A DNA stretch of 64,000 nucleotides from Sulfuricella sp. (GTDB taxonomy: Bacteria; Pseudomonadota; Gammaproteobacteria; Burkholderiales; Sulfuricellaceae). A model generated the notes under the pieces. The model made no database searches. It was not told the DNA's origin and saw only the letters and a program-made list of their open reading frames with translations. The stretch spans positions 709 to 64,708 of the forward strand of contig JAQTLK010000004.1 of assembly GCA_028714955.1 (NCBI GenBank). Reading direction: 5' to 3'. Of the stretch, positions 33,101-60,531 are shown piece after piece (position 1 is the first letter of the stretch; each line of letters begins with the position of its first letter). The position numbers were made by a program, and so were the translations under genes.

Positions 33101-34510
33101 TTACAGGCTGTAATACATGGCGAATTCGACCGGGTGAGTGGTCATGCGGAAGCGGGTGACTTCTTCCATCTTCAGTTCGATGTAGGCATCGATCCAGTCA
33201 TTGGAGAACACGCCGCCACGGGTCAGGAACTCGCGGTCCTTGTCGAGGTAGTCCAGCGCCTGGTCGAGCGAGGAGCACACGGTCGGGATCAGCTTTTCTT
33301 CTTCCGGCGGCAGGTCGTACAGGTTCTTGTCCATGGCATCGCCAGGATGAATCTTGTTCTGGATGCCGTCGAGGCCGGCCATCAGCAGTGCGGAGAAGCA
33401 CAGGTAGGGGTTGGCGGAAGGGTCCGGGAAACGGGTCTCGATGCGGCGGCCCTTGTCGCTGGCCACGTGCGGTATGCGGATCGAAGCGGAGCGGTTTTTG
33501 GCGGAGTAGGCCAGCATCACCGGGGCTTCGAAGCCGGGCACCAGGCGTTTGTAGGAATTGGTGCCAGGATTGGTGATCGCGTTCAGAGCACGAGCGTGTT
33601 TGATGATGCCGCCAATGTAGTACAGGGCGGTCTCGGACAGGCCGCCGTAGCCGTTGCCGGCGAACAGGTTCTTGCCGTCTTTCCAGATGGACTGGTGCAC
33701 GTGCATGCCGGAACCGTTGTCGCCGACGATGGGCTTGGGCATGAAGGTCGCGGTCTTGCCGTAGGCGTGAGCGACGTTGAATACCACGTATTTCAGGATC
33801 TGGGTCCAGTCGGCGCGTTTCACCAGGGTGCTGAACTTGGTGCCGATTTCGCACTGGCCGGCGGTTGCCACTTCGTGGTGGTGCACTTCGACCGGCACGC
33901 CCATTTCTTCCAGTGCAAGGCACATGGCGGAACGGATGTCCTGGAAAGAATCGACAGGGGGAACGGGGAAATAGCCGCCCTTGATGCCGGGGCGGTGGCC
34001 GGTATTGCCGCCTTCAAAGCTTTCGCTGGACGACCAGGCGGCTTCCTCGGACTCGATTTTCACCGAGGTGCCCGACATGTCGGCATGCCAGGTGACGGAG
34101 TCGAAAATGAAGAATTCTGGTTCCGGGCCGAAGTAGGCCGTGTCGCCGATGCCGGAAGATTTCAGGTAGGCTTCGGCACGCTTGGCGATGGAGCGCGGGC
34201 AGCGGTCGTAGCCCTTGCCGTCGGCGGGTTCGACCACGTCGCAGGAGAGGATCAGGGTGGCTTCATCGAAGAACGGGTCCATGTTGGCCGTATCGGGATC
34301 CGGCATCAACAGCATGTCGGACGCCTGGATGCCCTTCCAGCCGGCAATGGAGGAGCCGTCGAAAGCGTGGCCGCTTTCGAACCAGTCGGCATCCACGACG
34401 TGAGCGGGGATGGAAACGTGCTGTTCCTTGCCGCGAGTGTCGGTAAAACGCAGATCAACGAATTTGACTTCGTTGTCCTTGATCATTTTTAAAACGTCGG
34501 CAACTGCCAT
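33101..34510 (-). CDS. glnA: Glutamine synthetase type I
   Basis: [35 protein letters not shown]. Confidence 0.98.
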
Positions 34511-43899: not shown

Positions 43900-43974
43900 G
43901 GGTGGTTAGCTCAGCGGTAGAGCACTGCCTTCACACGGCAGGGGTCACAGGTTCAAACCCTGTACCACCCACCA
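43900..43974 (+). tRNA. tRNA-Val (CAC)
   Basis: Cloverleaf, anticodon stem ctgcc-TTCACAC-ggcag, encoded CCA; upstream TTGACG-N18-GATAAT promoter. Confidence 0.96.
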
Positions 43975-43985: not shown

Positions 43986-44013
43986 AGGCCACCTTTCGGG
44001 TGGCCTTGTTGTT
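43986..44013 (+). terminator. Terminator after tRNA-Val
   Basis: aggccacc-tttcg-ggtggcct followed by tgttgttt. Confidence 0.7.
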
Positions 44014-44067
44014 TCATGTGAAAAATGTGCGGAAACATCCGCAACGTCTACCCAAGCACGGGCTTTC

Positions 44068-45186
44068 TCAGGAAGTCGTGCGCAGCACGGCAAGCTGCGC
44101 CAGCAGCGCATCGGTTACCGGTCCCAGCTTGCGCCGCATGAGAGAGCCGACAGCCGTGGTGCGCACCAGGATTGGCGCCACGCTGAATTCGCCCGTCTCG
44201 GCCAGCACCAGGAGGGCGTGCAGCGCGGCACGATACTGCGGCGCGGCGGCAAGCAGCGCCCCCATCTCGTCATCCGGCGCGGCGAGGCGCTGTGCCGCCA
44301 CGGCCAGCGCTTCTTCCAGCTCGAGCTCCCGGTTCGCGTCCTGGCGCAGTACGCCGAAATAAGCGCCGATGGCGCGAAACAGGGCTCGCGCCACATCCTG
44401 GTCCGCGGGGCGGCGCATCACGTCTTCGCAAGCCGCCAGGAAACGCTTGCCGGATGGCGCGAGCACGCGAGCCAGTTGCCGCGCATAGGGGTTGTCTGCT
44501 GCCAGCAATGGCTCCAGCACGGAGCTGCCATGTTGCGGCATTTCTCGCGCGTCATTTTCTCCCGGCAGCGCATCCGGCACAGCCTCGAGAAACCCCACGT
44601 AGTATGTGTTGTCGCCCTTGGCCCGGCTCCACAGGCGCTGCACGGTCCGCGGATCGAGCAAGCCCGGTTGCAGCACGATGCGCACCGTGTCGATCACGGC
44701 ATGCGGGCTGGTTTCGAACGGCAGGTTTTCAACCAGGTACTCGGCCAGTAACGGCCCCATGGTTCCCTGCGACACTGCTGCCCGTTCCAGCATGCGCCGC
44801 GCATTGTCCCCGCTCTGCACGCACCACCAGGCGCGCCGCGCCAGCTCATCGGTGAGTTTGGGCGAATAGGCCACTGATACCACGGCCTCCTCATCACCCA
44901 GCAGCAGCAGCTTGTCAATGTTGTCTCCCAGGTTCTGGCCCATGCGGGTCCAGCGCTGGATGAACAGAGGATAGCCGCCGGGGGATCCCAGCGCGTGGCC
45001 GGACAGCATTTCCCGCACCAGCCGCAGATACTGCTCCTTGCGCCCGGTGGGATGCAGCGCGATGCGCGCCTCGCTGCGCCCTGTCAGGGCATGCAGGGTC
45101 AGGCTGTTTTCATCGATGCGCACCGCCTGCAATTCATGAGTAAGCAGGACATTGAGGCGCAGTGCGTCTTCGCTGGAGAGTTCCAT
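44068..45186 (-). CDS. dsrS: DsrS-like protein (372 aa)
   Basis: MELSSEDALRLNVLL...VRIDE...LGSPGGYP..IQRWTRMGQ...LTDELARRAWW...LVENLPFET matches my recollection of DsrS of rDsr sulfur oxidizers; needs an HMM check. Confidence 0.72.
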   Translation of the reverse strand: MELSSEDALRLNVLLTHELQAVRIDENSLTLHALTGRSEARIALHPTGRKEQYLRLVREMLSGHALGSPGGYPLFIQRWTRMGQNLGDNIDKLLLLGDEEAVVSVAYSPKLTDELARRAWWCVQSGDNARRMLERAAVSQGTMGPLLAEYLVENLPFETSPHAVIDTVRIVLQPGLLDPRTVQRLWSRAKGDNTYYVGFLEAVPDALPGENDAREMPQHGSSVLEPLLAADNPYARQLARVLAPSGKRFLAACEDVMRRPADQDVARALFRAIGAYFGVLRQDANRELELEEALAVAAQRLAAPDDEMGALLAAAPQYRAALHALLVLAETGEFSVAPILVRTTAVGSLMRRKLGPVTDALLAQLAVLRTTS

Positions 45187-45203
45187 TGAGTCTCGTAAAA
45201 AAC

Positions 45204-46457
45204 CTAGTTCAGCTGTATCCGTTGTCCCCACGGCACGGGGGCCTTGCCCTTCACCAGCCAGAGCGTGGGGTAGCTGGGCTCGATGGCGGGGAAATCGCCT
45301 TCCGCGTCGGTGAAATAGAGCAGCAGATCGGGCTGGCGTCCCTGGCGCGCAATCCAGTCGAACACTGGCACGAAGCTGGTGCCGCCGCCGCCCTTGATGT
45401 CCCTGGGCAGACGCAATTCATCCCATGGCTCGAACTCCCACGGCGCACCGTTGGACAAGGCAGTGTCGCAAGCCAGCAGCGTCACCCTGGCACGTAATTG
45501 GCCCTTGAGCGCATCCACTTCCGAGAGGAACTGGGCAAGCTCCTTTTCCCCCACCGAGCCGCTGGTATCGAGCGCCACGACCAGGTCGACCTGGCCGCTG
45601 CGCAACGAGGGGAAAATGACATCGCCCTCGCGGCGCGAGGGTCGCATGTAGCTGTAATCGTCGCGTGCCACCTGGGAAAGGTATCGCGCCAGCAGCATGC
45701 GCCACGGCAGTTGCGGCTGCAGAAGGTGCTCGACCAGGCGCGCCAGCGCACCGCCCATCTTGCCCGCCGCCATCGCCTGCTGCGCGGCGGCGGCCATGCG
45801 CTGCTGCCATTGGCGGCCAAGTTCGTCGCGTTCCCTGGCATTCAGGGGAGGCGGCGGCGAAGCGCTGCCCTGCCCGTCCTGCCGCTCCTGCTGCAGCCCG
45901 CTCCCGCCGCCCTCGGCATCCTCCTTTTGCTGCCTGCCGCCGCCTCCGTCGCCATCCTGTTGCGGCTCCTGATCGTTCTCGCCGCCCTGGCCGCCTTCGG
46001 ACTCCTCGCTGTCATAGAGGTGCTGATCCATGGTCTGGTCGGAGTTGTTGTCGCCGATGCAGGGGTAGATTTCTTCCGCCGTCATGCCCTCGAAGGCGTC
46101 CAGCAACAGCACGCCAGGGGGCGCCTTGAGGCCATCGGCCACGAGCAGGGGATTGATGGCATGATCGCAGGCCACATCCCAGCGGTGCCTGACGCGGTGC
46201 TGGCGGCGCGCGAAATGCGACAGGGCGCAATGCAGTGCCTCATGAGCCAGCACGAATTGGGTTTCTTCCAGCGTCAACGCGGCGATATAGGCAGGGTTGT
46301 AGTAAAACTTGCGCGCATCGGTGGCCGAGGTGGGGCACCATTTCTCGTTCGCCGCCACCATCGGCAGGCGCAGCGCCAGCGCGCCGAGAAACGGCTTGTC
46401 CAGAATCAGCCGGGTGCGGGCCGCCGCGAGTTTGGTTTCGATGGAAGTATCAAACAT
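45204..46457 (-). CDS. Metallopeptidase-like (HExxH) plus vWA domain protein (DUF2201-like)
   Basis: LAHEALHCAL, WDVACDHAIN, acidic Gly-rich linker, MIDAS ALDTSGS, GGGGTSFVPVF, LYFTDAEG. Confidence 0.85.
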   Translation of the reverse strand: MFDTSIETKLAAARTRLILDKPFLGALALRLPMVAANEKWCPTSATDARKFYYNPAYIAALTLEETQFVLAHEALHCALSHFARRQHRVRHRWDVACDHAINPLLVADGLKAPPGVLLLDAFEGMTAEEIYPCIGDNNSDQTMDQHLYDSEESEGGQGGENDQEPQQDGDGGGGRQQKEDAEGGGSGLQQERQDGQGSASPPPPLNARERDELGRQWQQRMAAAAQQAMAAGKMGGALARLVEHLLQPQLPWRMLLARYLSQVARDDYSYMRPSRREGDVIFPSLRSGQVDLVVALDTSGSVGEKELAQFLSEVDALKGQLRARVTLLACDTALSNGAPWEFEPWDELRLPRDIKGGGGTSFVPVFDWIARQGRQPDLLLYFTDAEGDFPAIEPSYPTLWLVKGKAPVPWGQRIQLN

Positions 46458-46481
46458 TGCATTCAGGTGCAAACAGCCGGA

Positions 46482-47528
46482 TCACATCTCATACAGCATG
46501 ATATCGGACACCGCGTTCGCCCAGCGCGAAAACTGCGGCACCTTGAACAGTTGCTGGCCGATGGCGCGATGCATGTCGGACACCAGCATGATGCCCATTT
46601 CGCGCAGCGGGAAACGCCCGGCGTAGTCGAGGATATGGCCATATGCCACCAGCGCGTCCGGGGCTCCCCTGGTGCGAATGGCCCTGCCGACCAGCGCGGC
46701 AGCCACGGCGTATTGGAGGTCAACCTCGTTGGGCACTTCGGCCGCCTCGCCACGCACGATGGCGTCGATATCCGGCATTTTGCCCAGGTTGTCCACGAAG
46801 GCGTGCAGCTCCAGACCGGCGGCGGGGCCGACGCAAGCCTGCAGCGCGCCGAGCAGCAATTCCGGCATGTCGCCGAACTTTTGCAAGGCGCGATGGGCGA
46901 ATTCCCAGGAACGGGGGGAAGGGAAGGCCACCGGGTTGTGGGCCGGATCGAAATCGAACAGCAACTCGGGACGGAAACGCAGGAACGCGATCAGGCGCTC
47001 GTCGATGGCATTGGCGTAGGCCCAGGCTACCCAGTCGTCGAGATTGGCGTCCACCTCGAAATGGGAGAAGCGGTTGGCCAGCGGTGCGGGCATGGTATAA
47101 GTCACGCCGCGATCGCCCTGGCGGTTGCCCGCGGCAAAGATCGCCCAGCCATCCGGTACCCGGTAATCGCCCAGGCGGCGATCGAGGATCAACTGGTATG
47201 CCGCAGCAGAAACGCTCGGTGGCGCCGAGGTGATCTCGTCCAGAAACAGCACCCCGACTGCTCCGTGTCGTTCGGCATCGGGCAACATCGCCGGCGCCGC
47301 CCACTCCACGAGGTCGCCGACGCGGAAAGGGATGCCGCGCAGGTCGGAGGGCTCCATCTGCGACAGGCGAATATCCACCACCGGCGCATCATGGTGTGCG
47401 GCAACCTGGGCAATGATCTCGGACTTGCCCACACCGGGCGGCCCCCACAGCATCACCGGCGTATGGTGGCCTTCGTGGACACTGGTAAATTCCCGATCAA
47501 GTATCGTCATCAATTGCGCGGGGCGCAT
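46482..47528 (-). CDS. MoxR-like AAA+ ATPase
   Basis: WGPPGVGKS, LFLDEIT, AAGNR, PLANRF, SPRSWE. Confidence 0.88.
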   Translation of the reverse strand: MRPAQLMTILDREFTSVHEGHHTPVMLWGPPGVGKSEIIAQVAAHHDAPVVDIRLSQMEPSDLRGIPFRVGDLVEWAAPAMLPDAERHGAVGVLFLDEITSAPPSVSAAAYQLILDRRLGDYRVPDGWAIFAAGNRQGDRGVTYTMPAPLANRFSHFEVDANLDDWVAWAYANAIDERLIAFLRFRPELLFDFDPAHNPVAFPSPRSWEFAHRALQKFGDMPELLLGALQACVGPAAGLELHAFVDNLGKMPDIDAIVRGEAAEVPNEVDLQYAVAAALVGRAIRTRGAPDALVAYGHILDYAGRFPLREMGIMLVSDMHRAIGQQLFKVPQFSRWANAVSDIMLYEM

Positions 47529-47543
47529 CAAAATTTTCCTGAA

Positions 47544-48827
47544 TTATTTCAATTTTTCAAAAGCGCGCCGCGCGGCTTCCAGCGTCGCAGCGATCTCCGC
47601 ATCGCCGTGGGCGGCGGACACGAATCCGGCCTCGAAGGCGGAAGGCGCAAAGTACACTCCCTCGTCCAGCATGGCATGGAAGAAGCGGTTGAACCTCTCC
47701 TTGTCGCACTGCATCACTTCGGCGTAGCTGGTCGGAACGGTGGCACTGAAGTACAGGCCGAACATGCCGCCCACTGCCTGTGCACAGAAGGGAATACCCA
47801 GTTCCCGTGCCACGGCAGTCAGTCCGTCGGTGAGCTTGCGCGTCATGGCGCCCAGCTTTTCATAAAATTCGGGCGTCTGCAGCAATTTCAAGGTGGCCAG
47901 TCCCGCCGCCACCGCCACCGGATTGCCGGACAGGGTGCCGGCCTGGTAAACCGGGCCGAGCGGCGCGAGTTTTTCCATGATGTCGCGCCGCCCGCCGAAG
48001 GCGCCGACCGGCATGCCGCCGCCGATCACCTTGCCCAGGGTGGTGAGATCAGGCGTAATCCCATAGAGGCCCTGCGCGCTGCCAGGGCCGACGCGAAAGC
48101 CAGTCATCACTTCGTCGAAAACCAGCACGCTGCCATGCTGCGTGCACAAGTCGCGCAGCGCCTGGAGAAATTCCGGCCTGGGCGCGATCAGGTTCATGTT
48201 GCCGGCAACGGGCTCGACGATCACGGCAGCGATCTCGCCGCCAATGCTCTTGAACGTCTGCGTCAAGCCTGCGACATCGTTATAGCCCAGCACCAGGGTT
48301 TGCGCCGCGACTTCCGCGGGAACGCCCGCCGAGCTGGGGTTGCCGAAAGTCAGCGCGCCGGAACCGGCCTTCACCAGCAGGAAATCGGCGTGGCCGTGGT
48401 AGCAGCCTTCGAACTTGATGATCCTGCTGCGCCCAGTAAAGCCGCGCGCCAGGCGGATGGCGCTCATGGTGGCCTCGGTACCGGAACTGACCAGGCGCAC
48501 CTGCTCCATGGAAGGCACCAGCTTGCACAGCAGTTCGGCCATCTCCAGCTCGCGCGCGGTGGGCGCGCCGAAGCTGAGTCCACGCGCCGCGGCTTCCTGC
48601 ACCGCCTTGACCACTTTGGGGTAGGCGTGGCCGAGGATGGCCGGCCCCCAGGAGCCGACATAGTCGATGTAGGATTTTCCGTCCTCGTCCCACAGCATGG
48701 CGCCCTTGCCGCGCTTGAAGAACACCGGCGTGCCGCCAACCGAACCGAAGGCGCGCACCGGGGAGTTCACGCCGCCGGGAATGAGCCGTTGGGATTGTTC
48801 GAATAAAGTCTGGTTACGTGAAGTCAT
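47544..48827 (-). CDS. hemL: Glutamate-1-semialdehyde 2,1-aminomutase
   Basis: [44 protein letters not shown]. Confidence 0.98.
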
Positions 48828-48839
48828 GAGCATCGGGTC

Positions 48840-49481
48840 CTAATGCAGCCAGCGTCCAGGTGAAGCCGGACGGCTGAAAAGTTGAGAATATTGTCGCGCT
48901 GCCAGCTCGATGTCCGGCGCGTCGAACAGGCCGGAAATCACTGCTATCGCGGCGGCGCCCGCCTCGATCAGCACCGGCGCATTTTCTGGCGTGATGCCGC
49001 CGATGGCTATTATGGGAACATGCAAACGTTTGCGTGCTTCCTGCAACAGGTCAAGCGGGGCGGCCACTGCCCCGGGTTTGGTCGCGGAGGGGAAGAAGCT
49101 GCCAAAAGCGACATAATCCGCGCCTCCGGCTTCCGCCGCAAGCGCCAGTTCCAGATCATTGTAGCAGGACACGCCGATCATTTTTTCCGCACCCAGGACG
49201 ATGCGCGCCTGGCGCAGGGAGCCGTCCTCGCGCCCCAGGTGCACCCCATCGGCGCCGCTCAGGTCGGCCAGTCGCAGGCTGTCGTTGACGATCAGCGGCA
49301 CGCCGAAGGCATGGCACAGATCGATCAGTTCGCTGGCCTGCTCATGCTGCAGGGCGACATCCCGACTCTTGCTGCGATACTGCACCACTGCCGCGCCCCC
49401 GGCCAGCGCGGCGCGCACCTGTCGCAGCAATCGTGCCGTATCGGCCTGCTCGGGCGTAATGGCGTAGAGCCCGCTAATCAT
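48840..49481 (-). CDS. thiE: Thiamine phosphate synthase
   Basis: VQYRSK, LIVND, DGVHLG, SCYN, FPSATKP, AIGGIT. Confidence 0.95.
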   Translation of the reverse strand: MISGLYAITPEQADTARLLRQVRAALAGGAAVVQYRSKSRDVALQHEQASELIDLCHAFGVPLIVNDSLRLADLSGADGVHLGREDGSLRQARIVLGAEKMIGVSCYNDLELALAAEAGGADYVAFGSFFPSATKPGAVAAPLDLLQEARKRLHVPIIAIGGITPENAPVLIEAGAAAIAVISGLFDAPDIELAARQYSQLFSRPASPGRWLH

Positions 49482-50295
49482 CGCCGGCGGCCTCGTCCTC
49501 CCGCGCCCAGAATAGCCGGTCAGGAATATATTGCCCCATGCCGGGACGAAAGCCCGCTTTCAGCGCAGCCCAAGTGTATTCCTGGGCCTCGCGCACCGCT
49601 TCGGCCACCTCCAGCCCATGGGCGATGGAGGCTGCCAGCGCCGAGGCCAGCGTGCAGCCGGAACCGTGATAGCTGCCGGGCAGGCGCTGCCAGGCATCGG
49701 AACGCAGCACCCCCTCCTGGCCGTGCAGAACGTTGACCACCTGGGGCGTATTCTCGTGCGTGCCGGTAATCAGCACGTATTCGCAACCGGTTTCTATCAG
49801 GCGCCGCGCGCAATCGTTCAGGTCGAGCTCTTCGTCGCTATCGTACTGTGCAAGGCGGCGCGCTTCCAGGCTGTTGGGCGTGATGATGGTGGTCTGCGGG
49901 ATGAGCATGTCCAGCATGGCCTCCAGCATGTCCTCCGACGCCAGTTCGTCGCCGCGCCCGGAAGCCAGCACGGGGTCGATGATGAGGGGCACGTCGGGAT
50001 AATCCGCGACGATCTCGGCGATCGCCGCGATGATTTCCACGCTGCCCAGCATGCCGATCTTGAACGCCGCGACCGGCATGTCTTCAAGCACGGCGCGGGC
50101 TTGCGCGGCGACCAGTTCCGCATCGAGCGCGTGAACGTCTTCCACCCCCACGGTATCCTGCACCGTGACGGCGGTAATAACCGTCAAGGCGTGGCAGCCC
50201 ATGCTCGACAGGGTCAGCAGGTCGGCCTGCATACCGGCACCCCCGGTGGGGTCGGTAGCGGCAAAAGCGAGAACGATAGGAGGCGAATCGGCCAT
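49474..50295 (-). CDS. thiD: HMP/HMP-P kinase family
   Basis: DPTGGAGMQAD, KIGMLGS, IDPVLASG, ITPNSLEA, YHGSGCTLAS. Confidence 0.92.
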   Translation of the reverse strand: MADSPPIVLAFAATDPTGGAGMQADLLTLSSMGCHALTVITAVTVQDTVGVEDVHALDAELVAAQARAVLEDMPVAAFKIGMLGSVEIIAAIAEIVADYPDVPLIIDPVLASGRGDELASEDMLEAMLDMLIPQTTIITPNSLEARRLAQYDSDEELDLNDCARRLIETGCEYVLITGTHENTPQVVNVLHGQEGVLRSDAWQRLPGSYHGSGCTLASALAASIAHGLEVAEAVREAQEYTWAALKAGFRPGMGQYIPDRLFWAREDEAAGDD

Positions 50296-50359: not shown

Positions 50360-51244
50360 TTATTTCAGCTTGTTCAACTGGCGCTGGATCAAGTCATCCG
50401 AGAGCGGCACGTACCCTGCCTCCGCCACTGCCGCCTGCCCTTCCCTCGACAGGCCTGTCTTGAGAAACGCCATTACTTCGGGGGAAACCGGTTTGCCATT
50501 GGGCCTGTCGATATAAAGAAAAAGAAAGTGCTGCAGGCGGTAACTCTTGTTGTAGAGGTTGGCCACCGTCAGCGGAACAAAATCGCCCGCCCCCTTTTTC
50601 AGGGGCACGATCTTCAGGCCGCTATTTGCCTGGTAACGGCCATATCCGAGCGCATCCTTGTTCTGCGCCACCCTGGCCAGCAACTGTTCGTGGCTCAGCT
50701 CTTCGATACCGGGCTTGAAGTCGTCGCGGCACAGCACGGTGTTGCTGAAAAAGTCGCGCACAGGCGACTTGTTGTCGTGCCCGAGCAGCACGATGGATTG
50801 CTTGTCCCACGGTGCCGGCAAACCAAGCTGGCCCCAGGTGGTGATGCGCTCATGCCAGCCGCAACCGTGGCTGGCGGAATAAAGGCTGTCGAGCTGCCTG
50901 TAATCGAGGCCCTTGAGCGGATTGCCGGGGTGCACGTACACCGCCACGGCCTCGATCCCCACCGCGATGGCAGTGGGATAATAGCCATGCACGCGGATAA
51001 AGGCTTCGCTTTCGTCGTTGGTCATTTCGCGGTTCATCGCCGCCAGGTCGGCCTTGCCGGAAATCAGGGCTTTGGGTGCGGTGCTGGTGCCGGGGCTGGA
51101 AATATTGATATCGCCGCCGGAGCGGGCCGCCCACTGTTTCAGGAAAGGCTCCAGCACGCTGGAGCCAATCGAGGTAACGCCAGCCAACGCCGCCGCCGGA
51201 GCGGCCGCCAGCAAGAAAACCAGGGTCAGCAACGTGCGTAACAT
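50360..51244 (-). CDS. PstS-family phosphate-binding protein (orphan)
   Basis: Signal peptide, GTSTAPKALISGKADLAAMNR, AVGIEAVAVYVHP.NP, ALGY, FLYIDR, AGYVPL. No pstCAB adjacent. Confidence 0.8.
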   Translation of the reverse strand: MLRTLLTLVFLLAAAPAAALAGVTSIGSSVLEPFLKQWAARSGGDINISSPGTSTAPKALISGKADLAAMNREMTNDESEAFIRVHGYYPTAIAVGIEAVAVYVHPGNPLKGLDYRQLDSLYSASHGCGWHERITTWGQLGLPAPWDKQSIVLLGHDNKSPVRDFFSNTVLCRDDFKPGIEELSHEQLLARVAQNKDALGYGRYQANSGLKIVPLKKGAGDFVPLTVANLYNKSYRLQHFLFLYIDRPNGKPVSPEVMAFLKTGLSREGQAAVAEAGYVPLSDDLIQRQLNKLK

Positions 51245-51457
51245 AGCTTTATTGCCCTTATTTTATTAACGATGAATTCTTCGCGGCATCATAGCATAAT
51301 TGCCAAAGTCGGCAATTCGCCCAGATTATCGACGATATTGCCATTAACCCCCACAAGGACTTTACCTGTCGGGGTTTTTCTATACAATGGCATGCAGTTA
51401 TGGCTTCGCGTTGTTTCACGTCAGGCAGGCTTCGAACGCGGACTTTGAGGAGGATGA

Positions 51458-51859
51458 GTGAGCGAGGAAAACAATTTGAGCGGCACCAAGGTGATGGTGA
51501 TCGACGACAGCAACACCATCCGTCGCAGTGCTGAAATCTTCCTCTTGAAAGCCGGTTGCGAAGTGATCCTGGCGGAAGACGGCTTCGACGCCATGGCCAA
51601 GATCGCCGATTACCAGCCCGATATCATTTTCGTCGACATCATGATGCCCCGCCTCGACGGCTATCAGGCCACCATGCTGATCAAGAAGAACCCCCGTTTC
51701 AAGCACACGCCCGTCATCATGCTCTCCAGCAAGGATGGGCTGTTCGACCGCGCGCGCGGCAGAATGGTCGGCTCCGACGAATACCTCACCAAGCCCTTCA
51801 CCAAGGACAGCCTGCTGGAAGCCGTCCGTAAACACACAAGCACCCGTAGCGGCGCATAA
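51458..51859 (+). CDS. pilG: Twitching-motility response regulator
   Basis: KVMVIDDSNTIRRSAEIFL, DIMMPRLDGYQ, LSSKDGLFDRARGR. Confidence 0.95.
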   Translation: MSEENNLSGTKVMVIDDSNTIRRSAEIFLLKAGCEVILAEDGFDAMAKIADYQPDIIFVDIMMPRLDGYQATMLIKKNPRFKHTPVIMLSSKDGLFDRARGRMVGSDEYLTKPFTKDSLLEAVRKHTSTRSGA

Positions 51860-51880
51860 ATCAACGTACAGAGGTTACGC

Positions 51881-52246
51881 ATGGCAATCCATAAAATTCT
51901 GGTCGTCGATGATTCACCCACCGAACGCCATTTCCTCAACAGCCTGCTCACCAAGCAGGGTTATCAGATCGTGCTGGCGGAAAATGGCGAAGAGGCCATG
52001 CTCAAGGCCAGGCAGGAAAAGCCCGACCTCATCATCATGGACGTGGTGATGCCCGGCCTCAATGGCTTTCAGGCCACCCGCGCCATCTCCAAGGACGAGG
52101 AAACCCGGCACATTCCCGTCATCATGTGCACCACCAAGGGACAGGAGACGGACAAGGTATGGGCAATGCGCCAGGGCGCCAGGGACTATGTCACCAAACC
52201 GGTGAACCAGGCTGAGCTGCTCGGCAAAATCGCGGCACTCGGCTAA
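51881..52246 (+). CDS. pilH: Twitching-motility response regulator
   Basis: VDDSPTE, MDVVMPGLNGFQATR, TTKGQETDKVW. Confidence 0.95.
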   Translation: MAIHKILVVDDSPTERHFLNSLLTKQGYQIVLAENGEEAMLKARQEKPDLIIMDVVMPGLNGFQATRAISKDEETRHIPVIMCTTKGQETDKVWAMRQGARDYVTKPVNQAELLGKIAALG

Positions 52247-52260
52247 GGACGCCCAACCCC

Positions 52261-52785
52261 ATGGCACGACGCAATAAAATCGGGCTGCGCGAATTCCACC
52301 AGGAGGTGGTCGCCAAGCTGCAGGCCCTGAGTCAGGGCGGCGAAGCCGCGCCCTCATCGAAACTGGGGCTGCAGGCGGGCGATCAGTACTGGCTGGTGGA
52401 TCTGGCCGATATCGGCGAAGTGATCCAGCCGCCGGCGCTCACCCCCGTGCCGCTCTCGCAACCCTGGTTTGCCGGGGTCGCCAACGTGCGCGGCAACCTC
52501 TACAGCGTGGCGGATTTTTCCGCGTTCTGCGGCGGCGAAGCGGTAGCGGACAGCGCGGACAAACGCCTCGTTCTGGCCCACCCAAAATTCATGGTAAATG
52601 CTGGCCTGCTGGTCAGCCGCCTGCTTGGCCTGCGCCATGCAGACCAGTTGCAGGGGCGGGATATCCCGGCTGGCGCGGCGTCCTGGGTGAGCGCCGCGTA
52701 CACCGATAACGAAGGGCACCAATGGCAGGAATTGAACGTGCAGGCCCTGGTCAACGACCACGGCTTCCTGCAGGCGGGGCGGTAG
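52261..52785 (+). CDS. pilI: CheW-like adaptor
   Basis: VPLSQPWFAGVANVRGNLYSVAD. Confidence 0.9.
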   Translation: MARRNKIGLREFHQEVVAKLQALSQGGEAAPSSKLGLQAGDQYWLVDLADIGEVIQPPALTPVPLSQPWFAGVANVRGNLYSVADFSAFCGGEAVADSADKRLVLAHPKFMVNAGLLVSRLLGLRHADQLQGRDIPAGAASWVSAAYTDNEGHQWQELNVQALVNDHGFLQAGR

Positions 52786-52824
52786 CGCAGTACAGGCTCA
52801 AAAACAGCACCGAAAACACGAGGG

Positions 52825-54975
52825 ATGGAGATAAAAACAATGGCGTTCAAAGCGGAAAACCTGATGTTCTGGAAACGTGCCGGCAAAGGCAGGAGCGGTG
52901 CCGAAACCCCGCTGCATACCACCATGATTCTGCAGGGCATGCGCAAGCTTTCGGACAAGGAGCCGGGAACCGTCCCCCTCATCGGCCATCTGCCGATCGA
53001 GAGGCAATACCTGGTTACGGTTTCCACCCTGGTGATATTCCTCATCCTGGCGGTTGCCACCCTGGTCTACAACACCGTGCGCGTGGGCCGCAATGCCGAA
53101 TACGTGGCCACCTCCACCGAAATGCAGATGCTTTCGCAACGGATCGCCAAGAGCGCGCAGCAGGCAGCGCAGGGCAATACCGCCGCGTTCCGGCAACTGG
53201 ACGAAAGCGAAAAGCGCTTCGACAGGAGCCTCAAGAAACTGGTCAATGGCGGTGACGGCCTGCCGGCCTCGCCCGCTTCAGTGCAGCCGTTGCTGAAGGA
53301 GCTGGACAAGAAGTGGACCCCCTTGCAAAAAGCGATCGACCTGATTCTCAAGCAGGAAAAGGGGCTGGTGGATCTGAACCGCAGCGTGGCTGCGATCAAC
53401 ACCAACAACATCCAGTTGCTGGAACTGGCCGAGCAGGTGGCCGGTCTCCTGACCCAATCGGGCGCGCAACTGCGGGAAGTGACCATCGCCTCGCAACTGG
53501 TGATGCTGACCCAGCGCATGGCGAAAAACGCCAACACCCTGCTCTCGTCCGACGTCATCGACCCGGAAGTCGCCTTCCTGCTGGGCAAGGATGCCAACAC
53601 CTTCCACGACATCCTGGATGGCCTTCTCAACGGCAGCGAGGATCTGCGCCTGACCGCAGTCAAAGACCCTGACACCCGCGACAAGCTGAACGAACTCAAC
53701 GAGGCGTTCAAGGAATTTTCCGCGGAATCCAACAAGATTCTGCAAAGCATGCAGGATCTGGTGAACGCCAAGCAGGCCGGACGCTCGATCTTCGTGGGTT
53801 CAGACGGGCTGCTCGATGACGCCCGCAAGCTCGCCGCAGGCTATGAAAAGCTTGCCGGCGGCACAGGGCTGCTGGTGCTGTCCTTCGTTTACGGCCTTCT
53901 CGCCATTGGCGCCCTGGTCATGCTGGGCATGATTAACGTGAACGACGCCAAGAAGCGCGCGCTGGCAAGCGAGCGCGAGAACAAATCCAACCAGGAAGCC
54001 ATTCTGCGGCTGCTGAACGAAATGGGCGACCTGGCGGAAGGCGACCTGACGGTGCGTGCCAAGGTGACAGAAGACATCACCGGCGCCATCGCCGACTCCA
54101 TCAACTATACCATCGACGAATTGCGCGGCCTGGTAACGGAGATCAACAAGACCAGCGAGCAGGTGACCCAGGCTTCCCGCCAGGCGCAGAACATTTCCAA
54201 CGAACTGCTGGAGGCCGCGCAGAAGCAGTCGCAGGAGATCGAGGACACCTCCGCCCAGGTGTTGCAGATGGCGCAATCGATTAACGAGGTATCCGCCAAC
54301 GCCGCCGAGTCCGCCCGCGTGGCACAGCAATCTCTCGATGCGGCCGAGAAGGGCACCACCGCCGTGCACAACTCCATCACCGGCATGAACGAGATTCGCG
54401 AGCAGATCCAGGACACCTCGAAACGCATCAAGCGCCTGGGTGAAAGCTCGCAGGAAATTTCGGAAATCGTCGAACTGATTTCCGACATTACCGAACAGAC
54501 CAACATTCTCGCGCTGAACGCCGCCATCCAGGCTGCATCGGCCGGCGAGGCGGGGCGCGGCTTCACGGTGGTGGCGGAAGAAGTGCAACGTCTGGCGGAG
54601 CGCTCCGGCGAGGCGACGAAACAGATTTCCGCGATTGTGAAGGCCATTCAGACCGATACCCAGGACGCCGTGTCGGCGATGGAAAAGAGCACCCAGGGCG
54701 TGGTGGAGGGCGCCAAACTGTCCGATGCCGCCGGCCAGGCGCTGAACGAAATCGACCAGGTGTCGCGCAACCTCGCGGAACTGATCGAAACCATTTCCCG
54801 CGCCACCCAGAACCAGGCGCAGGCGGCCCGCGTCGTGGCCTCCAACATGCAGGAAATCCAGAACATCACCATCCAGACCACGGAAGGCACCAAAAAAACC
54901 GCCATTTCCGTGGGCGAGCTGGCGACACTGGCAACCGACCTGCGCGGATCGGTGGCTGGCTTCAAACTTTCCTGA
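52825..54975 (+). CDS. pilJ: Methyl-accepting chemotaxis protein
   Basis: Two TM helices, [57 protein letters not shown]. Confidence 0.95.
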
Positions 54976-54999
54976 GCAAGCCAAGGGGCACCTTGATAA

Positions 55000-57900
55000 A
55001 TGAGCATTGAATTCGATACCGGCCCGCTCACCTGGGTCAAGGGTGAAATTGACCAGGCCCTGCAGCAGGCTGACGAAAAACTGGCCCAATTCGCTGCCGA
55101 CGCCTCCGACAGCACGCCGTTGCGCCAGTGCCAGACGCATTTGCACCAGGTCAGCGGCGCCATCCAGATGGTGGGGCTCGAAGGCGTGGCGCGCCTCGGC
55201 GAAGCAATCGAGCAACTGGTCGGGGCGATGGAAAAGCGCGAGGTCGCCATTTCCGGGGCCAATCTCGACTTGATCAAGCGGGGCATGGCCGCACTCTCGC
55301 AGTACCTGGAAGACCTGCTTGGCGGCCAGCCGGACCAGCCGCTGCGGCTGTTTCCTGTTTATCACGCCTTGCTCGCGGCGCGGGGCGTGGAAAAGGTCAG
55401 CGAAAGCGAGCTGTTTTTCCCCGACCTGACCCTCCGCGCGCCGAAAAACCCGGATGTCCACCCCCGCGCCGCCGAGGCGCTGCCGAGCTTCCTCAAGGCC
55501 GAGCGCGCGCGTTACGAGCGCGGCCTGCTCGGCTTCCTGCGTAACGCGGAAGACAGCGCGGCGCTGGGCAAAATGCGCGATGCGCTGGCCGCCATCGAAC
55601 AAACCCAGACCGTTCCGGCGCTTCGCACTTTCTGGTGGAGCGCGACCGGCCTGGCTGAAAGCCTGCTGCACAAGGGCCTGGACGCCAGCCTCAACCTCAA
55701 GCAGTTATGCGGGCGCATAGACCAGCAAATCCGCCGTCTTGCCGAAGGCTCGCCCAAGGTGGCGGAACGCCTGCTGCGCGACGTGCTGTATTTTGTCGCG
55801 CGCAGCAAGCCGGTAAGCGGCAGGGTGGCAGAGATCCAGGGCTTGTTCGAACTAGAGGCATACATGCCCCATAGCGCGGAACAGGAAGCGGCAAAAACCG
55901 AGCAGGAGCGGATGCTGCCGCTGCTGCGCGAATTGCGCGACCTGCTTGCGTCCGCCAAGGAGGCCTGGCTCAAGTTCACCTCGGGCAGCAACGACAGCCT
56001 GGCGAATTTTCATGCTCAGGCCAGGCGCCTGGCGGACAGGGCCTCGGCTTTGGAAAATGCTCCGCTTAACCAGTTGCTGCACCAGATCGGCTATGGCGCC
56101 GCCGCCCTCGCCGCCCATCCCGCCGACATGAACGAAATGGTGGCGATGGAGATGGCTACCGCATTGCTGCTGGCGGAAAACACACTGGAACACTACCTGG
56201 GCGCAACGGATGAGTTCACCCGGCAGGCCGAAGTGCAATCCTCGAGACTGCAGGCGGCGCTGCAGGGCAGGCTGGACGAAATCGAAGTTTCGGACATTCC
56301 GCTGCTGGACGAAATGTCGCGCAAGGCACAGGAAAAACTCCTGCTGGCGCAGGTCGGCCAGGAAATCCAGTCCAACCTGCAGCACATCGAGCAGGTGCTG
56401 GACGGCTTCTTCCGCGATACCGCCAAACGCGACGAATTGCCCGGCCTGAAGCCTTTCCTCAAGCAAATCCAGGGCGCGCTGAAAATTCTCGAGCTGGAAC
56501 CCGCCATCAAACTGCTGGATGAGTGCGAGCGCCTCATCGACGGCTTTTCTCAGCCTGGCCATGAACCCCTGCAGGCGCAGATGGAACAGGTGGCAGAAGG
56601 ATTGAGCAGCCTCGGCTTCTATGTCGAAGCCATCCAGCGTGGCCGCGCGGACGCGGTGCAGATCGTTGACGGCGCCCTTGCCCGCCTCAATCCCGCCGCG
56701 CAAGCGCCGCTTGTGGCCACGCCGGTGGAAATCCCCGAAGAACAAGCCGCCACGAGCGTCGAAGCCAGTCTGGAAGACCAGAAACAGCGCGCCCAGGCCC
56801 TGCTGGAGCAGTGGCAGGAGAACCCTGACGATGCCCAGGCCAAGGCGGACCTGAAAAAACAGTTTTCCGTCTTGCAGCAGGACGCCGAACTGGTGGCGGA
56901 TGGCACGCTCAAATCCCAGGCCACGGAAGCGATGCGCCTTCTGGAACAGGCGGAAATGCCGACGGCCGAGCTGGCTACCGCAACCGCAGCCCTGAGCGCG
57001 CCGAAAATGGCGGCCAGCGTCCCATCGGCGGAGACGACGCGTCTCGCCGGAGAAGCCGACGAAACCATCGATGCCGAAATGCTCGAAATCTTCCTGGAAG
57101 AGGCCGACGAAGTGCTCGCCACGGTGACCGGGAATCTCGACCTATGCCATGCCCGGCCCAACGACAGGGAAGCGCTTGCCACGCTGCGCCGCAGTTTTCA
57201 CACGCTCAAGGGCAGCGGCCGCATGGTGGGCCTGTGGGAATTGGGCGAGGTTGCCTGGGCGATCGAGCAGGTGATGAACAAGTGGCTGCAGGAAGAAAAG
57301 AACGCCACCCCGGAACTCCTCGCCCTGCTTGGCCAGGCGCAGCAGCGCTTTCTTGGCTGGGTAGCCGCGCTGAAAGCCAGCGGCACGGTCAGGATCATGG
57401 CCGACGACCTGGTGGCGGAAGCCGAGCGCCTGAAAACCGGGATGAACGCACCTGGTGTTGCAGCGCCCCCCGAAGCACCCGCCGCGGCCGCTGAAGAAAC
57501 GCCTGCGGCGGAACCGGGCATGGAAATCAGCGCACCGCCCGGCGAGGAGCCCGCTGAAGAAATCATAAGCATCGTCGGGCTTCCCGCCGAGGAAACGCCA
57601 TCCGTTGCCGAAACGTGCGAAGAAAGTGCCGAAGCGGAGCCGCTTCCCGCAGCGCTCATGGAGCAAAGCGCGCCGGCAAGCGAAGCCGGGGTCGAAGCGG
57701 AGCCGCCTGCGGGTGTCGAAGCGCAGCAGCCTCCCGTGGAGGAAGAGCGTGAAATCTCGGTCGGCTCCGTCACCCTGCCCTATGCCCTCTACAGCATATT
57801 CATCAATGAAGCCGGACAGCACCTGGCCACGCTGCGGCAGCACCTGGATGCCCTGACCCAGAACCCCGAAGTGGCCGTGCAGCATGATTTCATGCGAGCG

Positions 57901-60531
57901 GCGCACACCCTGTGCGGCATCTCGCGCACGGTGGGTTTCCCGGCCATCGCCGAACTGGGCTTTCCGCTCGAAATGTGGTTGCAGGAACTGTTGCAGCACC
58001 CCGTGCCGCTCACGGCCAAACAGGTCGACCTCATGGGAGAGGCCATCGCCGCCCTGGGCAAGATGGTCGAAGCCATCCGCGATGGCCAGGAGCCAAAGTC
58101 GGCCCAGAAACTGGTTCGCTCCCTGGAGGGCATGCTGAACCAGGCCCGGGTGGCGCGCGAGCCGCTTGCGGTCGCCCCCGCACCCGCCGCCATCACGGAA
58201 GAAGCCGCCGTTGCCGCTCCGCCAGCGGTGCAGGAAAGCGTGCATCCAATCGCTGCCCCGCCAAGCGAAGCGCCTCGTGAACGCCGCGTCATCCGCGACG
58301 ACATCGATCCGGACCTGTTGCCGATCTTCCTCGAAGAAGCCCAGGACCTGTTCCCGCTGGTTGGCGGCCAACTGCGCGCCTGGCGCGCCAATACGGCCGA
58401 CCGCCCGGCTTCCGACGGACTGCAGCGCACGCTGCACACTCTCAAGGGCAGCGCCCGCATGGCCGGCGCCATGCGGCTGGGCGAACTGACCCACAACATG
58501 GAAGCGCGCGTCCTCGCCGCGCTCGACTCGGAGGACCTTCCGCCCGCGCTCTTCGACACGCTGGAAAGCGAATTCGACCGCATGGGCGACGTGCTGGAGC
58601 AACTGCGCAGCGGCCCGCTGCCCGAAGCAGAGGCCGTGCCGGCGAGTGCTGCCGTTATGGCGCCAGCCGAGCCTGCCGCCGTGGCGGCAGCGCCCGTCGC
58701 GGAGCCCGAAGCCGCCGCCAGGGTCATGCTGCGCATGCGCGCCGACGTGGTGGACCGGCTGGTGAATGAAGCCGGCGAGGTGAGCATCGCGCGTTCGCGC
58801 ATCGAAGGGGAAATGCAGAATTTCAAGCGTTCCCTGCTCGATTTGACCGAGAGCGTCAACCGCCTGCGCAACCAGTTGCGCGAAATCGAGATCCAGGCAG
58901 AAAGTCAGATGCAGTCGCGCCAGTCGCTCGCCCGCGAGTCCCACGAAGCATTCGACCCGCTGGAATTCGACCGCTTCACCCGTTTGCAGGAAGTGACCCG
59001 CATGATGGCCGAGAGCGTCAACGACGTCGCCAGCGTGCAGCACAACCTGCTCAAAAATCTGGACGAAACCGAAGCCGCGCTGCTGGCGCAGTCGCGCATG
59101 ACCAAGGAGCTGCAACAGGAATTGCTGCACGCCCGCATGGTGCCGTTGGCCAGCATCTCCGAGCGGCTTTTCCGCATCGCGCGCCAGACCTCGAAGGAAC
59201 TGGACAAGCGCGCCACGCTGGAGATCATCGGCGAGCAGGTCGAACTCGACCGCAGCGTGCTGGAAAAGATGACCGCTCCGTTCGAGCACCTGCTGCGCAA
59301 CGCCATCGACCACGGCCTGGAAAGCAGGGAGGCAAGGCTCGCCGCCGGCAAGGAGGAAGTCGGCGTCATCGAACTGCAGGCGCGCCAGGAAGGCAACGAA
59401 ATCCTGCTCACCCTGCGCGACGATGGCCGCGGCCTCGACCTCGACGGCATTCGCCGCAAGGCGATCGAGCTCGGCATGCTCGCGCCGGAGGACGAAGTCG
59501 CGCCGGCGCAGCTGATGGAACTGATTTTCTTCTCGGGCTTTTCCACCGCCGCCGAAGTGACCCAGGTTTCCGGGCGCGGCATCGGCATGGACGTGGTGCG
59601 CAATGAAATCGCCAGTCTCGGCGGCCGCATCGAAGTCGCCTCCGAAGCGGGCAAGGGAACGACCTTCAGCATCTACCTGCCGCTCACCCTGGCGGTTGCC
59701 CAGGCGGTACTGGTGCGCGCCGGCAGCCAGGTTTATGCGTTGCCCTCGACCATGGTGGACCAGGTCCAGGAGCTCAAGGCGGACGCACTGGCGGAGATTT
59801 ACCAGAAACAGCAGGTAACATGGCAAGGCAACGCCTACCCGCTGCACTACTTTCCGCGCCTGCTGGGGGACCAGGAATCCACCCCGGCAGCGCAGCGCTA
59901 CACCACCGTGATGCTCTTGCATAGCGGCGCGCAGCACGTGGCGGTGCACGTGGACGAGCTGATCGGCAACCGCGAGATCGTGGTCAAGAACATCGGCCCG
60001 CAGCTCGCCCGCGTACCGGGCGTGGCCGGGGCCACCGTGCTGGGCAACGGCAAGGTCGTGCTGATCCTCAATCCGGTCCAGCTCGCGCAGCGTCAGGGCA
60101 TCCCCGCCCTGCTTGGCCACCGCCCGGCTGCCGAAGCCGCGCAACAGCCCGCCGCCACGCCGCTCGTCATGATCGTGGACGACTCGCTCACGGTACGCAA
60201 GATCACCAGCAAGCTCCTCACGCGCGAAGGCTACCAGGTGGTGACCGCCAAGGACGGTGTGGACGCCTTGCAGGCTCTGGAGGACGTCACGCCGCAGGTG
60301 ATGCTGGTGGACATCGAAATGCCGCGCATGGATGGCTTCGAACTGACCAAGAATGTGCGCGGCAACGAAAGGACCGCGCACATCCCGATCATCATGATTA
60401 CCTCGCGCACCGCCGACAAACACCGCAACTACGCCCAGGAGCTGGGCGTCAACGTGTATCTGGGCAAGCCCTACCAGGAAGAGGAACTGCTGGGATACAT
60501 CGCGGGCTTCGTCAGGGGCAACCTGCACTGA
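55000..60531 (+). CDS. chpA: ChpA/PilL multi-Hpt CheA-like hybrid kinase
   Basis: Hpt motifs LHQVSG, FHTLKGS, AHTLCG, LHTLKGS; EHLLRNAIDHG HATPase; CheW; C-terminal receiver VDDSLTVRK. Confidence 0.95.
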   Translation: MSIEFDTGPLTWVKGEIDQALQQADEKLAQFAADASDSTPLRQCQTHLHQVSGAIQMVGLEGVARLGEAIEQLVGAMEKREVAISGANLDLIKRGMAALSQYLEDLLGGQPDQPLRLFPVYHALLAARGVEKVSESELFFPDLTLRAPKNPDVHPRAAEALPSFLKAERARYERGLLGFLRNAEDSAALGKMRDALAAIEQTQTVPALRTFWWSATGLAESLLHKGLDASLNLKQLCGRIDQQIRRLAEGSPKVAERLLRDVLYFVARSKPVSGRVAEIQGLFELEAYMPHSAEQEAAKTEQERMLPLLRELRDLLASAKEAWLKFTSGSNDSLANFHAQARRLADRASALENAPLNQLLHQIGYGAAALAAHPADMNEMVAMEMATALLLAENTLEHYLGATDEFTRQAEVQSSRLQAALQGRLDEIEVSDIPLLDEMSRKAQEKLLLAQVGQEIQSNLQHIEQVLDGFFRDTAKRDELPGLKPFLKQIQGALKILELEPAIKLLDECERLIDGFSQPGHEPLQAQMEQVAEGLSSLGFYVEAIQRGRADAVQIVDGALARLNPAAQAPLVATPVEIPEEQAATSVEASLEDQKQRAQALLEQWQENPDDAQAKADLKKQFSVLQQDAELVADGTLKSQATEAMRLLEQAEMPTAELATATAALSAPKMAASVPSAETTRLAGEADETIDAEMLEIFLEEADEVLATVTGNLDLCHARPNDREALATLRRSFHTLKGSGRMVGLWELGEVAWAIEQVMNKWLQEEKNATPELLALLGQAQQRFLGWVAALKASGTVRIMADDLVAEAERLKTGMNAPGVAAPPEAPAAAAEETPAAEPGMEISAPPGEEPAEEIISIVGLPAEETPSVAETCEESAEAEPLPAALMEQSAPASEAGVEAEPPAGVEAQQPPVEEEREISVGSVTLPYALYSIFINEAGQHLATLRQHLDALTQNPEVAVQHDFMRAAHTLCGISRTVGFPAIAELGFPLEMWLQELLQHPVPLTAKQVDLMGEAIAALGKMVEAIRDGQEPKSAQKLVRSLEGMLNQARVAREPLAVAPAPAAITEEAAVAAPPAVQESVHPIAAPPSEAPRERRVIRDDIDPDLLPIFLEEAQDLFPLVGGQLRAWRANTADRPASDGLQRTLHTLKGSARMAGAMRLGELTHNMEARVLAALDSEDLPPALFDTLESEFDRMGDVLEQLRSGPLPEAEAVPASAAVMAPAEPAAVAAAPVAEPEAAARVMLRMRADVVDRLVNEAGEVSIARSRIEGEMQNFKRSLLDLTESVNRLRNQLREIEIQAESQMQSRQSLARESHEAFDPLEFDRFTRLQEVTRMMAESVNDVASVQHNLLKNLDETEAALLAQSRMTKELQQELLHARMVPLASISERLFRIARQTSKELDKRATLEIIGEQVELDRSVLEKMTAPFEHLLRNAIDHGLESREARLAAGKEEVGVIELQARQEGNEILLTLRDDGRGLDLDGIRRKAIELGMLAPEDEVAPAQLMELIFFSGFSTAAEVTQVSGRGIGMDVVRNEIASLGGRIEVASEAGKGTTFSIYLPLTLAVAQAVLVRAGSQVYALPSTMVDQVQELKADALAEIYQKQQVTWQGNAYPLHYFPRLLGDQESTPAAQRYTTVMLLHSGAQHVAVHVDELIGNREIVVKNIGPQLARVPGVAGATVLGNGKVVLILNPVQLAQRQGIPALLGHRPAAEAAQQPAATPLVMIVDDSLTVRKITSKLLTREGYQVVTAKDGVDALQALEDVTPQVMLVDIEMPRMDGFELTKNVRGNERTAHIPIIMITSRTADKHRNYAQELGVNVYLGKPYQEEELLGYIAGFVRGNLH

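Follow-up and report, generated by a model that had tools for sequence, protein, structure and literature searches.

The stretch of DNA analysed here, 64,000 nucleotides (nt) of a Sulfuricella sp. genome (contig JAQTLK010000004.1, positions 709 to 64,708), is referred to in its full length as the window. It carries on its minus strand three consecutive genes that we call the triad. The first encodes a MoxR-type AAA+ ATPase, the second a protein in which a zincin domain is joined to a von Willebrand factor A (vWA) domain, and the third a homologue of DsrS. The genes and the motifs recognised in them, in positions of the window, are the following.

46482-47528, minus strand: MoxR-type AAA+ ATPase gene, 348 amino acids (aa), ATG start (Pfam AAA_5)
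47421-47444, minus strand: Walker A motif GPPGVGKS, read directly from the sequence
47235-47249, minus strand: Walker B motif LFLDE, read directly from the sequence
45204-46457, minus strand: zincin-vWA gene, 417 aa (Pfam DUF2201_N and DUF2201)
46230-46244, minus strand: zincin motif HEALH, read from the sequence
45852-46055, minus strand: variable acidic/Gly-rich linker leading from the zincin to the vWA domain (alignment and sequence)
45555-45569, minus strand: complete MIDAS DTSGS of the vWA domain, read from the sequence
44068-45186, minus strand: gene of the DsrS homologue, 372 aa (homology and synteny)
44935-44988, minus strand: top-conserved DsrS motif GSPGGYPxxLxRWTRMGQ (alignment of homologues)

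The original prediction, made from the letters of this region, had the positions and the minus strand of these genes right, and only start codons were amended. The short gaps of roughly 10-25 nt that it described among the upstream hemL gene and the three triad genes were measured as 15 nt (hemL-AAA), 24 nt (AAA-vWA) and 17 nt (vWA-DsrS), all on the minus strand. For the zincin-vWA gene, the orthologue alignment favours the ATG at 46457; an alternative TTG at 46472 would reduce the AAA-vWA gap to 9 nt. For the third gene, the mechanical open reading frame starts from a GTG at 45231 and overlaps the vWA gene; this start was rejected, and the length of the homologues fits the ATG at 45186.

We then asked whether the third gene, called DsrS-like in the original prediction, belongs to the DsrS family. 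Its product matched nothing in Pfam, NCBIfam, PADLOC or PHROG, none of which appears to contain a DsrS model. Its relatives carry the name DsrS in NCBI and UniRef, and they form a compact family with 407 cluster representatives at 50% identity. Moreover, the order dsr..P-N-R-X occurs in six of the loci that we collected (L028, L031, L049, L070, L072 and L073), X being a DsrS homologue and the last gene. In representative loci, Pfam identified the genes preceding X as DsrL-like, NrfD (DsrP), a CobB-type amidase (DsrN) and IscA-like (DsrR). The dsr gene order of Allochromatium vinosum likewise ends in ...OPNRS (PMC4205035, PMC10892978). The gene that follows dsrN-dsrR in L028 encodes a protein sharing 50% identity with the window protein across 363 residues (E 9e-126). 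Full-length homology, together with synteny with the dsrN-dsrR-linked genes, indicates that the third gene of the triad is a true DsrS-family member. A tblastn search of the 64-kb window with DsrK, DsrL, DsrO, DsrP, DsrN, DsrR, CysG and Grx gave no match, and for the window the gene does lie away from any dsr operon, as had been claimed. Separation of dsrS from the dsr cluster is not exceptional and has been described in Sulfurifustis, Sulfuricaulis and Thioalkalivibrio (PMC5024460, PMC5328954). The protein is among the last products of the dsr operon to lack an assigned function (PMC3368242).

The first gene of the triad encodes a P-loop ATPase. Its product matches Pfam AAA_5 with 38.9 bits (cut-off 22 bits, E 1.1e-9), and both Walker motifs are invariant among the orthologues, whose mean column identity reaches 83% across Beta- and Gammaproteobacteria. 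When its profile was compared with solved structures, the nearest were the AAA domains of midasin (1.5e-16), followed by CbbQ (4e-4) and NorQ (6e-3), which places the protein in the MoxR/midasin group. Its C-terminus is extended by about 150 conserved aa. As is typical of a MoxR-type gene, it is followed, 24 nt downstream, by the gene of a vWA partner.

That partner is a DUF2201 protein (Pfam PF13203 and PF09967). The N-terminal domain, DUF2201_N, a putative metallopeptidase, was recognised with 162.7 bits (cut-off 23.2, E 1.8e-47), and the vWA-like DUF2201 domain with 88.8 bits (cut-off 26.4, E 4e-25). All 16 orthologues examined keep H72, E73, H76, H81, D297, T298, S299 and S301 without variation, and the same holds for two Asp residues alongside HEALH and one further His. 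With its HExxH intact, the protein could be a zinc peptidase. The AlphaFold2 (AF2) model was poor, with a predicted local distance difference test score (pLDDT) of 60 and a shallow alignment, and its structure matches, to integrin I-domains and the vWA domain of CLCA1, concerned the C-terminal domain only; we therefore draw no conclusion on the type of zincin. A sequence search of solved structures returned one weak match, to the minigluzincin MJ1213 (E 0.9), which was not used.

The linkage of the pair with DsrS was followed from both sides. A DsrS scan of one genome per species found a relative in 595 genomes, from which the best 80 loci were taken; the scan used a 14-sequence DsrS alignment, a 28-sequence version being too diverse. 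The vWA-anchored sample comprised 80 metagenome loci with a vWA orthologue at 55-100% identity. Among the 62 DsrS loci with at least 2.7 kb of upstream sequence, the AAA and vWA genes lie directly upstream of DsrS in 27, to which one locus with a partial vWA match may be added. The remaining loci have in this position a Sel1-repeat gene (25 loci), dsrN-dsrR (5) or something else (4); a sixth dsrN-dsrR locus, L072, is on a shorter contig and falls outside the 62. When short contigs on which the end of the vWA gene is visible are included, the pair is found at 37 of 74 classifiable DsrS loci. Seen from the vWA gene, the AAA gene is immediately upstream in nearly all loci long enough to tell, and DsrS follows within 600 nt in 31 of the 62 metagenome loci of sufficient length. 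Across triad loci the gap between vWA and DsrS is typically 3-30 nt. The flanks of the triad vary: no fewer than 8 gene families were seen on its upstream side and no fewer than 12 on the downstream side. Since it recurs in dozens of species, this gene arrangement is far beyond chance. The original prediction could have failed either on the identity of the third gene or on an absence of linkage between it and the pair elsewhere, and the third gene turned out to be DsrS and the pair to be linked to it in other genomes.

The records with the triad are assigned to Sulfuricellaceae, Gallionellaceae, Thiobacillaceae and Thiohalomonas/Thiohalomonadaceae, together with many gammaproteobacterial metagenome-assembled genomes (MAGs). 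The isolates Sulfurimicrobium lacus and Sulfuricella denitrificans skB26, sulfur oxidisers and the closest named relatives of the window's organism, have the same triad order. When 81 DsrS sequences were placed in a neighbour-joining tree, those linked to AAA-vWA made up the whole betaproteobacterial clade and three separate gammaproteobacterial clades. The DsrS genes linked to a dsr operon form one nested clade. From this nesting and from the locus counts, the dsr-operon position of dsrS is a minority arrangement within the sample and looks derived. In seven loci the order is Sel1-AAA-vWA-DsrS, as though the pair had entered a Sel1-DsrS junction or had dropped out of it elsewhere. A literature search, in which subscription journals were incompletely covered, found no paper linking DsrS with MoxR or vWA proteins.

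A conserved string of genes surrounds DsrS in Gammaproteobacteria loci among L015-L077 (for example L034, 4146-12926, and L044, 9506-9952). It consists of DUF6866 on the opposite strand, a gene of about 200 aa, a Sel1-repeat gene, the AAA-vWA pair where present, DsrS, a 181-aa gene, a glutaredoxin gene and cysG; the ~200-aa and 181-aa genes have no Pfam family. As for the window itself, the metagenome contig L086 is 100% identical to it over the vWA gene, and DNA near-identical to 44000-48900 (at least 0.9 of sampled 31-mers) was found in metagenomes from sediment, microbial mats, sludge, landfill and hot springs. This relative of Sulfurimicrobium is thus a widespread organism.

The pair and DsrS also occur apart. 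Thiohalobacter thiocyanaticus has a Sel1-DsrS locus (L024) and, at a separate site (L081), an AAA-vWA pair that is 66% identical. In Chromatiaceae, where DsrS is located in the dsr operon, the AAA-vWA pair of MAGs precedes a BepA-like M48/TPR gene, after which soxY-soxZ come next. In all, 14 loci, of which 3 are copies of a single Chromatiaceae locus, have the pair without adjacent DsrS and then the BepA-like gene, and in 8 of the 14 this gene is followed by sox genes, encoding a cytochrome c, SoxY, SoxZ or SoxA. A pair lacking DsrS next to it is thus often only one gene away from soxXYZA. The loci combining AAA-vWA, BepA-like and sox genes are L083-L085, L095, L118, L122, L156 and L158, and their BepA-like M48/TPR peptidase has a signal-peptide-like N-terminus. 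Taken with T. thiocyanaticus, these loci suggest that the AAA-vWA orthogroup stays in sulfur oxidisers, near sulfur-oxidation genes, even when DsrS is absent alongside.

According to these results, we consider the chances about even that the AAA+ protein, the zincin-vWA protein and DsrS constitute a three-part functional unit acting in the reverse Dsr (rDsr) pathway. Several points weigh against such a unit. The genes are adjacent in only about half of the loci, whether the sample is anchored on DsrS or on vWA, and these fractions are biased, each 80-locus sample being made of the loci closest to the query. RNA data covering the region amount to one run with a single contig of 268 nt, inside dsrS only. 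In A. vinosum, Grimm et al. 2010 are said to have found that deletion of dsrS merely slows sulfur oxidation, and dsrS there has a promoter of its own (PMC3368242). Finally, full-length relatives of both the AAA and the zincin-vWA protein, at 28-42% identity, occur on conjugative plasmids and in phages, so that the AAA/zincin-vWA module is generic and not Dsr-specific.

Plasmids contributed 131 records of these mobile relatives, all below 45% identity, and phages, jumbo phages included, another 686 at about 28-33% identity. The pair matches the phage families phrog_1297 and phrog_1314 with E-values of 3e-92 and 5e-89. On the Cupriavidus plasmid pRK1-1 the order is AAA - DUF3150 - VWA-like, the AAA protein being 35% identical to that of the window; DUF3150 is unrelated to DsrS (hhalign probability 0.4%). 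By homology, then, the module is made up of an AAA+ protein, a zincin-vWA protein and a variable third protein, and the version of sulfur oxidisers is a tight chromosomal orthogroup. The family phrog_1314 is labelled "HNH endonuclease", and in several jumbo-phage records the gene is named a homing endonuclease (for example L167, 4001-5185, PP408249.1). Because the family matches the whole zincin-vWA protein, we doubt this label, which seems to have been transferred by mistake from homing endonucleases located nearby.

Such a generic module could also be a general remodelling or peptidase pair that has no function in common with its neighbour, the position of DsrS being inherited and kept by descent. 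The loci lacking the adjacency fit this explanation, and so do the phage and plasmid pairs with other partners such as DUF3150 and the loci in which the pair stands alone beside HDOD, GGDEF, thioredoxin or Hsp15-like genes. The AAA protein is moreover far more conserved than DsrS (72-91% versus 44-76% identity). However, the adjacency is kept from Beta- to Gammaproteobacteria though every flanking gene differs, the gaps are operon-like, and a pair separated from DsrS still lies beside sox genes or shares its genome with DsrS. We therefore hold a mere neighbourhood of this kind to be rather unlikely.

The phage and plasmid relatives also raise the possibility of a system derived from a mobile element, or of an anti-phage conflict system of the MoxR-vWA ternary type. 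The AAA protein shows weak, sub-threshold similarity to bpMoxR (20.4 bits, under the 27-bit cut-off) and to the P-loops of IetA, BrxF and DolB. In PADLOC, however, its matches were only local to the P-loop (E of at least 1e-4), and the vWA protein and DsrS had none. An identification as a defence system fails on this point, no defence profile being matched beyond the P-loop. The triad moreover has no effector domain, its G+C content is that of the adjoining genes, and it combines a stable core-genome position with extreme conservation, all of which makes a conflict system extremely improbable in our view.

The predicted structure of DsrS bears on its possible place in the unit. The AF2 model is of good quality (pLDDT 89.8, predicted template-modelling score 0.84) and has a small three-stranded N-terminal sheet followed by an all-helical repeat body. 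Foldseek against solved structures gave a best E of 0.26 with template-modelling scores below 0.3. As it yielded generic alpha-solenoids only, no structural family was assigned. The top-conserved motif GSPGGYPxxLxRWTRMGQ coincides with the sole internal stretch of low confidence (pLDDT ~60), and in the model it is probably a flexible, functionally important binding loop. Alternatively, DsrS would be the substrate of the machine and not its adaptor: a regulator of dsr expression whose level is set by ATP-dependent unfolding and cleavage through the AAA+ and zinc-peptidase proteins. The same loop could then be a recognition or cleavage site. The conserved adjacency would fit equally well, the peptidase motif is intact, and Grimm et al. 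2010 reportedly discussed DsrS and DsrR as post-transcriptional regulators. On the other hand, no nucleic-acid-binding or signalling domain could be recognised in DsrS, its alpha-repeat fold resembles a scaffold, and a substrate that shares a promoter with its own protease, while possible, would be unusual for MoxR systems. Altogether we judge it unlikely that DsrS is a substrate.

We now turn to the genes around the triad. The following features flank it in the window.

50360-51244, minus strand: gene of a PstS-family periplasmic binding protein (NCBIfam TIGR02136, score below cut-off)
49474-50295, minus strand: thiD (NCBIfam TIGR00097, above cut-off)
48840-49481, minus strand: thiE (NCBIfam TIGR00693, above cut-off), with an 8-nt overlap with thiD
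47544-48833, minus strand: hemL, glutamate-1-semialdehyde 2,1-aminomutase (NCBIfam TIGR00713, 623 bits, cut-off 527)
43986-44006, unstranded: two-way hairpin terminator, G+C-rich, with T tracts on both strands (terminator scan)
43900-43974, plus strand: tRNA-Val, convergent to dsrS, with the hairpin terminator in between

In the window genome the triad is probably the tail of a transcript that begins at or before thiD. The PstS-family gene is possibly the first gene of this same-strand run; promoter-like hexamers (a consensus match only) lie upstream of it at 51288-51315, and the gene order of the run with the PstS-family gene is the same in Sulfurimicrobium lacus. Sigma-70-like hexamers (TTGAAA, a 16-nt spacer and GAAAAT) were also seen on the minus strand at 47533-47560, at the end of hemL. 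If real, they would give an almost leaderless triad transcript. We did not rely on them because they are a consensus match only and the leader ahead of the AAA gene would measure just 4 nt.

Divergent from the thiD run, a Pil-Chp-like chemosensory cluster occupies 51458-60531 on the plus strand and includes two CheY-type receivers, a methyl-accepting chemotaxis protein and a CheA-type hybrid kinase of 1843 aa. PilJ, CheW and two receivers neighbour the same run in Sulfurimicrobium lacus and Sulfuricella denitrificans, and the AT skew is +0.15 to +0.2 across 52-60 kb of the window. Elsewhere in the window, group II intron RNA domains were recognised at 32269-32555 on the plus strand (Rfam RF02001, 137 bits; RF01998, 62 bits), about 150 nt after a tRNA-Ala(CGC) at 32042-32117. 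Long open reading frames follow at 33101-34510 and may encode the intron reverse transcriptase.

The position of hemL had led the original prediction to propose that the unit is co-expressed with tetrapyrrole supply. The adjacency of hemL and AAA was seen in Sulfuricella-like loci only (records named Sulfuricellaceae, Sulfuricella or Gallionellaceae). Only the closest relatives (L001-L004 and L012) have a short gap of 15-20 nt; in L005, L006, L009, L013 and L014 the two genes are 81 to about 5100 nt apart, and in Sulfuricella denitrificans 341 nt. Besides, thiD-thiE-hemL is a conserved cluster by itself, for example PA3975-PA3977 in Pseudomonas aeruginosa. For these reasons the hemL-AAA junction of the window is read as lineage-specific. 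Whereas this part of the proposal is thus confined to one lineage, the connection with tetrapyrroles itself reappears elsewhere in another form. Downstream of DsrS in Gammaproteobacteria, grx-cysG was found in 24 of 69 loci, the CysG siroheme synthase having all four Pfam domains, and dsrN, the siroheme amidase gene, precedes DsrS in the operon-linked clade. With hemL, cysG and dsrN, DsrS has three different tetrapyrrole contexts, of which cysG and dsrN point to siroheme; they are suggestive but no proof.

By analogy with the Mg- and Co-chelatases, the triad might even be a chelatase-like tetrapyrrole machine for siroheme or siroamide, with DsrS as the tetrapyrrole-binding part. The three tetrapyrrole contexts would agree with this, as would the number of components, the acidic/Gly-rich linker ahead of the vWA domain and a weak match of the AAA protein to the phage CobS-like phrog_249, 'porphyrin biosynthesis' (E 7e-11). 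However, DsrS, with its 372 aa, has no similarity to CobN or BchH, no Pfam match and no fold match, and the vWA protein has a zincin domain instead of the AAA-like N-terminal domain of BchD/CobT. Moreover, Pfam Mg_chelatase was matched with only 12.5 bits, and insertion of iron into sirohydrochlorin is ATP-independent (CysG/SirB). An identification as a chelatase lacks its defining feature, the large porphyrin-binding subunit of the CobN/BchH family, and we find this explanation very unlikely.

We return to the three-part unit in the rDsr pathway. The original prediction had proposed a remodelling or proteolysis system, driven by ATP, that acts on DsrS or on siroheme/Fe-S Dsr enzymes; the partnership of the pair with DsrS is supported by our results, and the action on these targets stays a hypothesis. 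The model that follows is inferred throughout, from the binding of the three proteins to one another and the adaptor role of DsrS to which client it is and in which direction it is affected. In this model the AAA+ protein would assemble into a MoxR-type ring, which would spend ATP on remodelling a client or pulling on it. As in related machines, the vWA domain would dock through its MIDAS metal-ion site on an acidic residue, either in the client or in the ring, and the N-terminal zinc-peptidase domain, its HExxH being intact, could clip the client. The helical-repeat DsrS would be the cytoplasmic specificity subunit that brings a component of the reverse Dsr system to the machine, the purpose being assembly, activation, repair or controlled turnover of that component. 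No signal peptide was seen in the sequences of the AAA+, zincin-vWA and DsrS proteins. All three appear to be cytoplasmic, and cytoplasmic Dsr clients are therefore favoured over the Sox proteins, which are periplasmic. Given that DsrS has siroheme genes as neighbours, the leading candidate for the client would be the siroheme/siroamide-containing DsrAB or its maturation factors; that the client is DsrAB or siroheme is a tentative proposal, possible at best. In its most specific form, in which DsrS is a client-specific adaptor of a hitherto uncharacterised class of MoxR machines, built from an AAA+ ring and a zincin-vWA subunit, that matures, activates or repairs the siroamide/Fe-S enzyme DsrAB, the scenario is a doubtful one, and we offer it as a speculation.

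Reverse Dsr is a main sulfur-oxidation route in sediments, mats and symbionts. In our sample, the most common genomic partner of DsrS is a highly conserved, ATP-driven remodelling/peptidase pair and not the dsr operon. DsrS, a long-standing puzzle, thereby gains a molecular partner that can be tested, and the DUF2201 zincin-vWA family, widespread, uncharacterised and present in phages and plasmids as well, would gain a first cellular context. If DsrS were indeed an adaptor, this would be the first mechanistic role for DsrS and for the DUF2201 module.

How does the triad compare with systems already described? The DsrS of the A. vinosum dsrABEFHCMKLJOPNRS operon belongs to the same family and has about 370 aa, but the window, like about half of the sampled species, has the gene after AAA-vWA and outside the dsr operon. 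With the class I chelatases (BchI/D/H and CobS/T/N) the triad shares an AAA+ protein, a vWA protein with an acidic linker, a third subunit and tetrapyrrole genes nearby. Its third subunit, however, is not homologous to BchH or CobN, and its vWA protein has a peptidase domain, so that the resemblance is an analogy only. The AAA/DUF2201 pairs of plasmids and jumbo phages show full-length homology in both proteins (35% identity for AAA, 29-42% for vWA) and also have a variable extra gene. They remain far below the identity of at least 55% that characterises the orthogroup of sulfur oxidisers, and their third gene is DUF3150. The closest parallel is offered by the MoxR-vWA pairs CbbQ/O, NorQ/D, CoxD/E and RavA/ViaA, which mature or activate specific metalloenzyme complexes (PMC3893208). 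As in CbbQ-CbbO, NorQ-NorD, CoxD-CoxE and RavA-ViaA, an AAA_5 gene directly precedes a vWA gene whose product has a complete MIDAS, and the pair lies beside genes of one respiratory or energy pathway. In contrast to these chaperone pairs, the window unit has dsrS as a third conserved gene, some 150 conserved additional aa at the C-terminus of the AAA protein, and an N-terminal HExxH zincin domain (DUF2201_N) on the vWA partner; we know of no such domain in CbbO, NorD or ViaA. The MoxR-vWA pair is thus of a known kind, and what is new is the zincin-bearing vWA partner together with DsrS as the conserved third gene.

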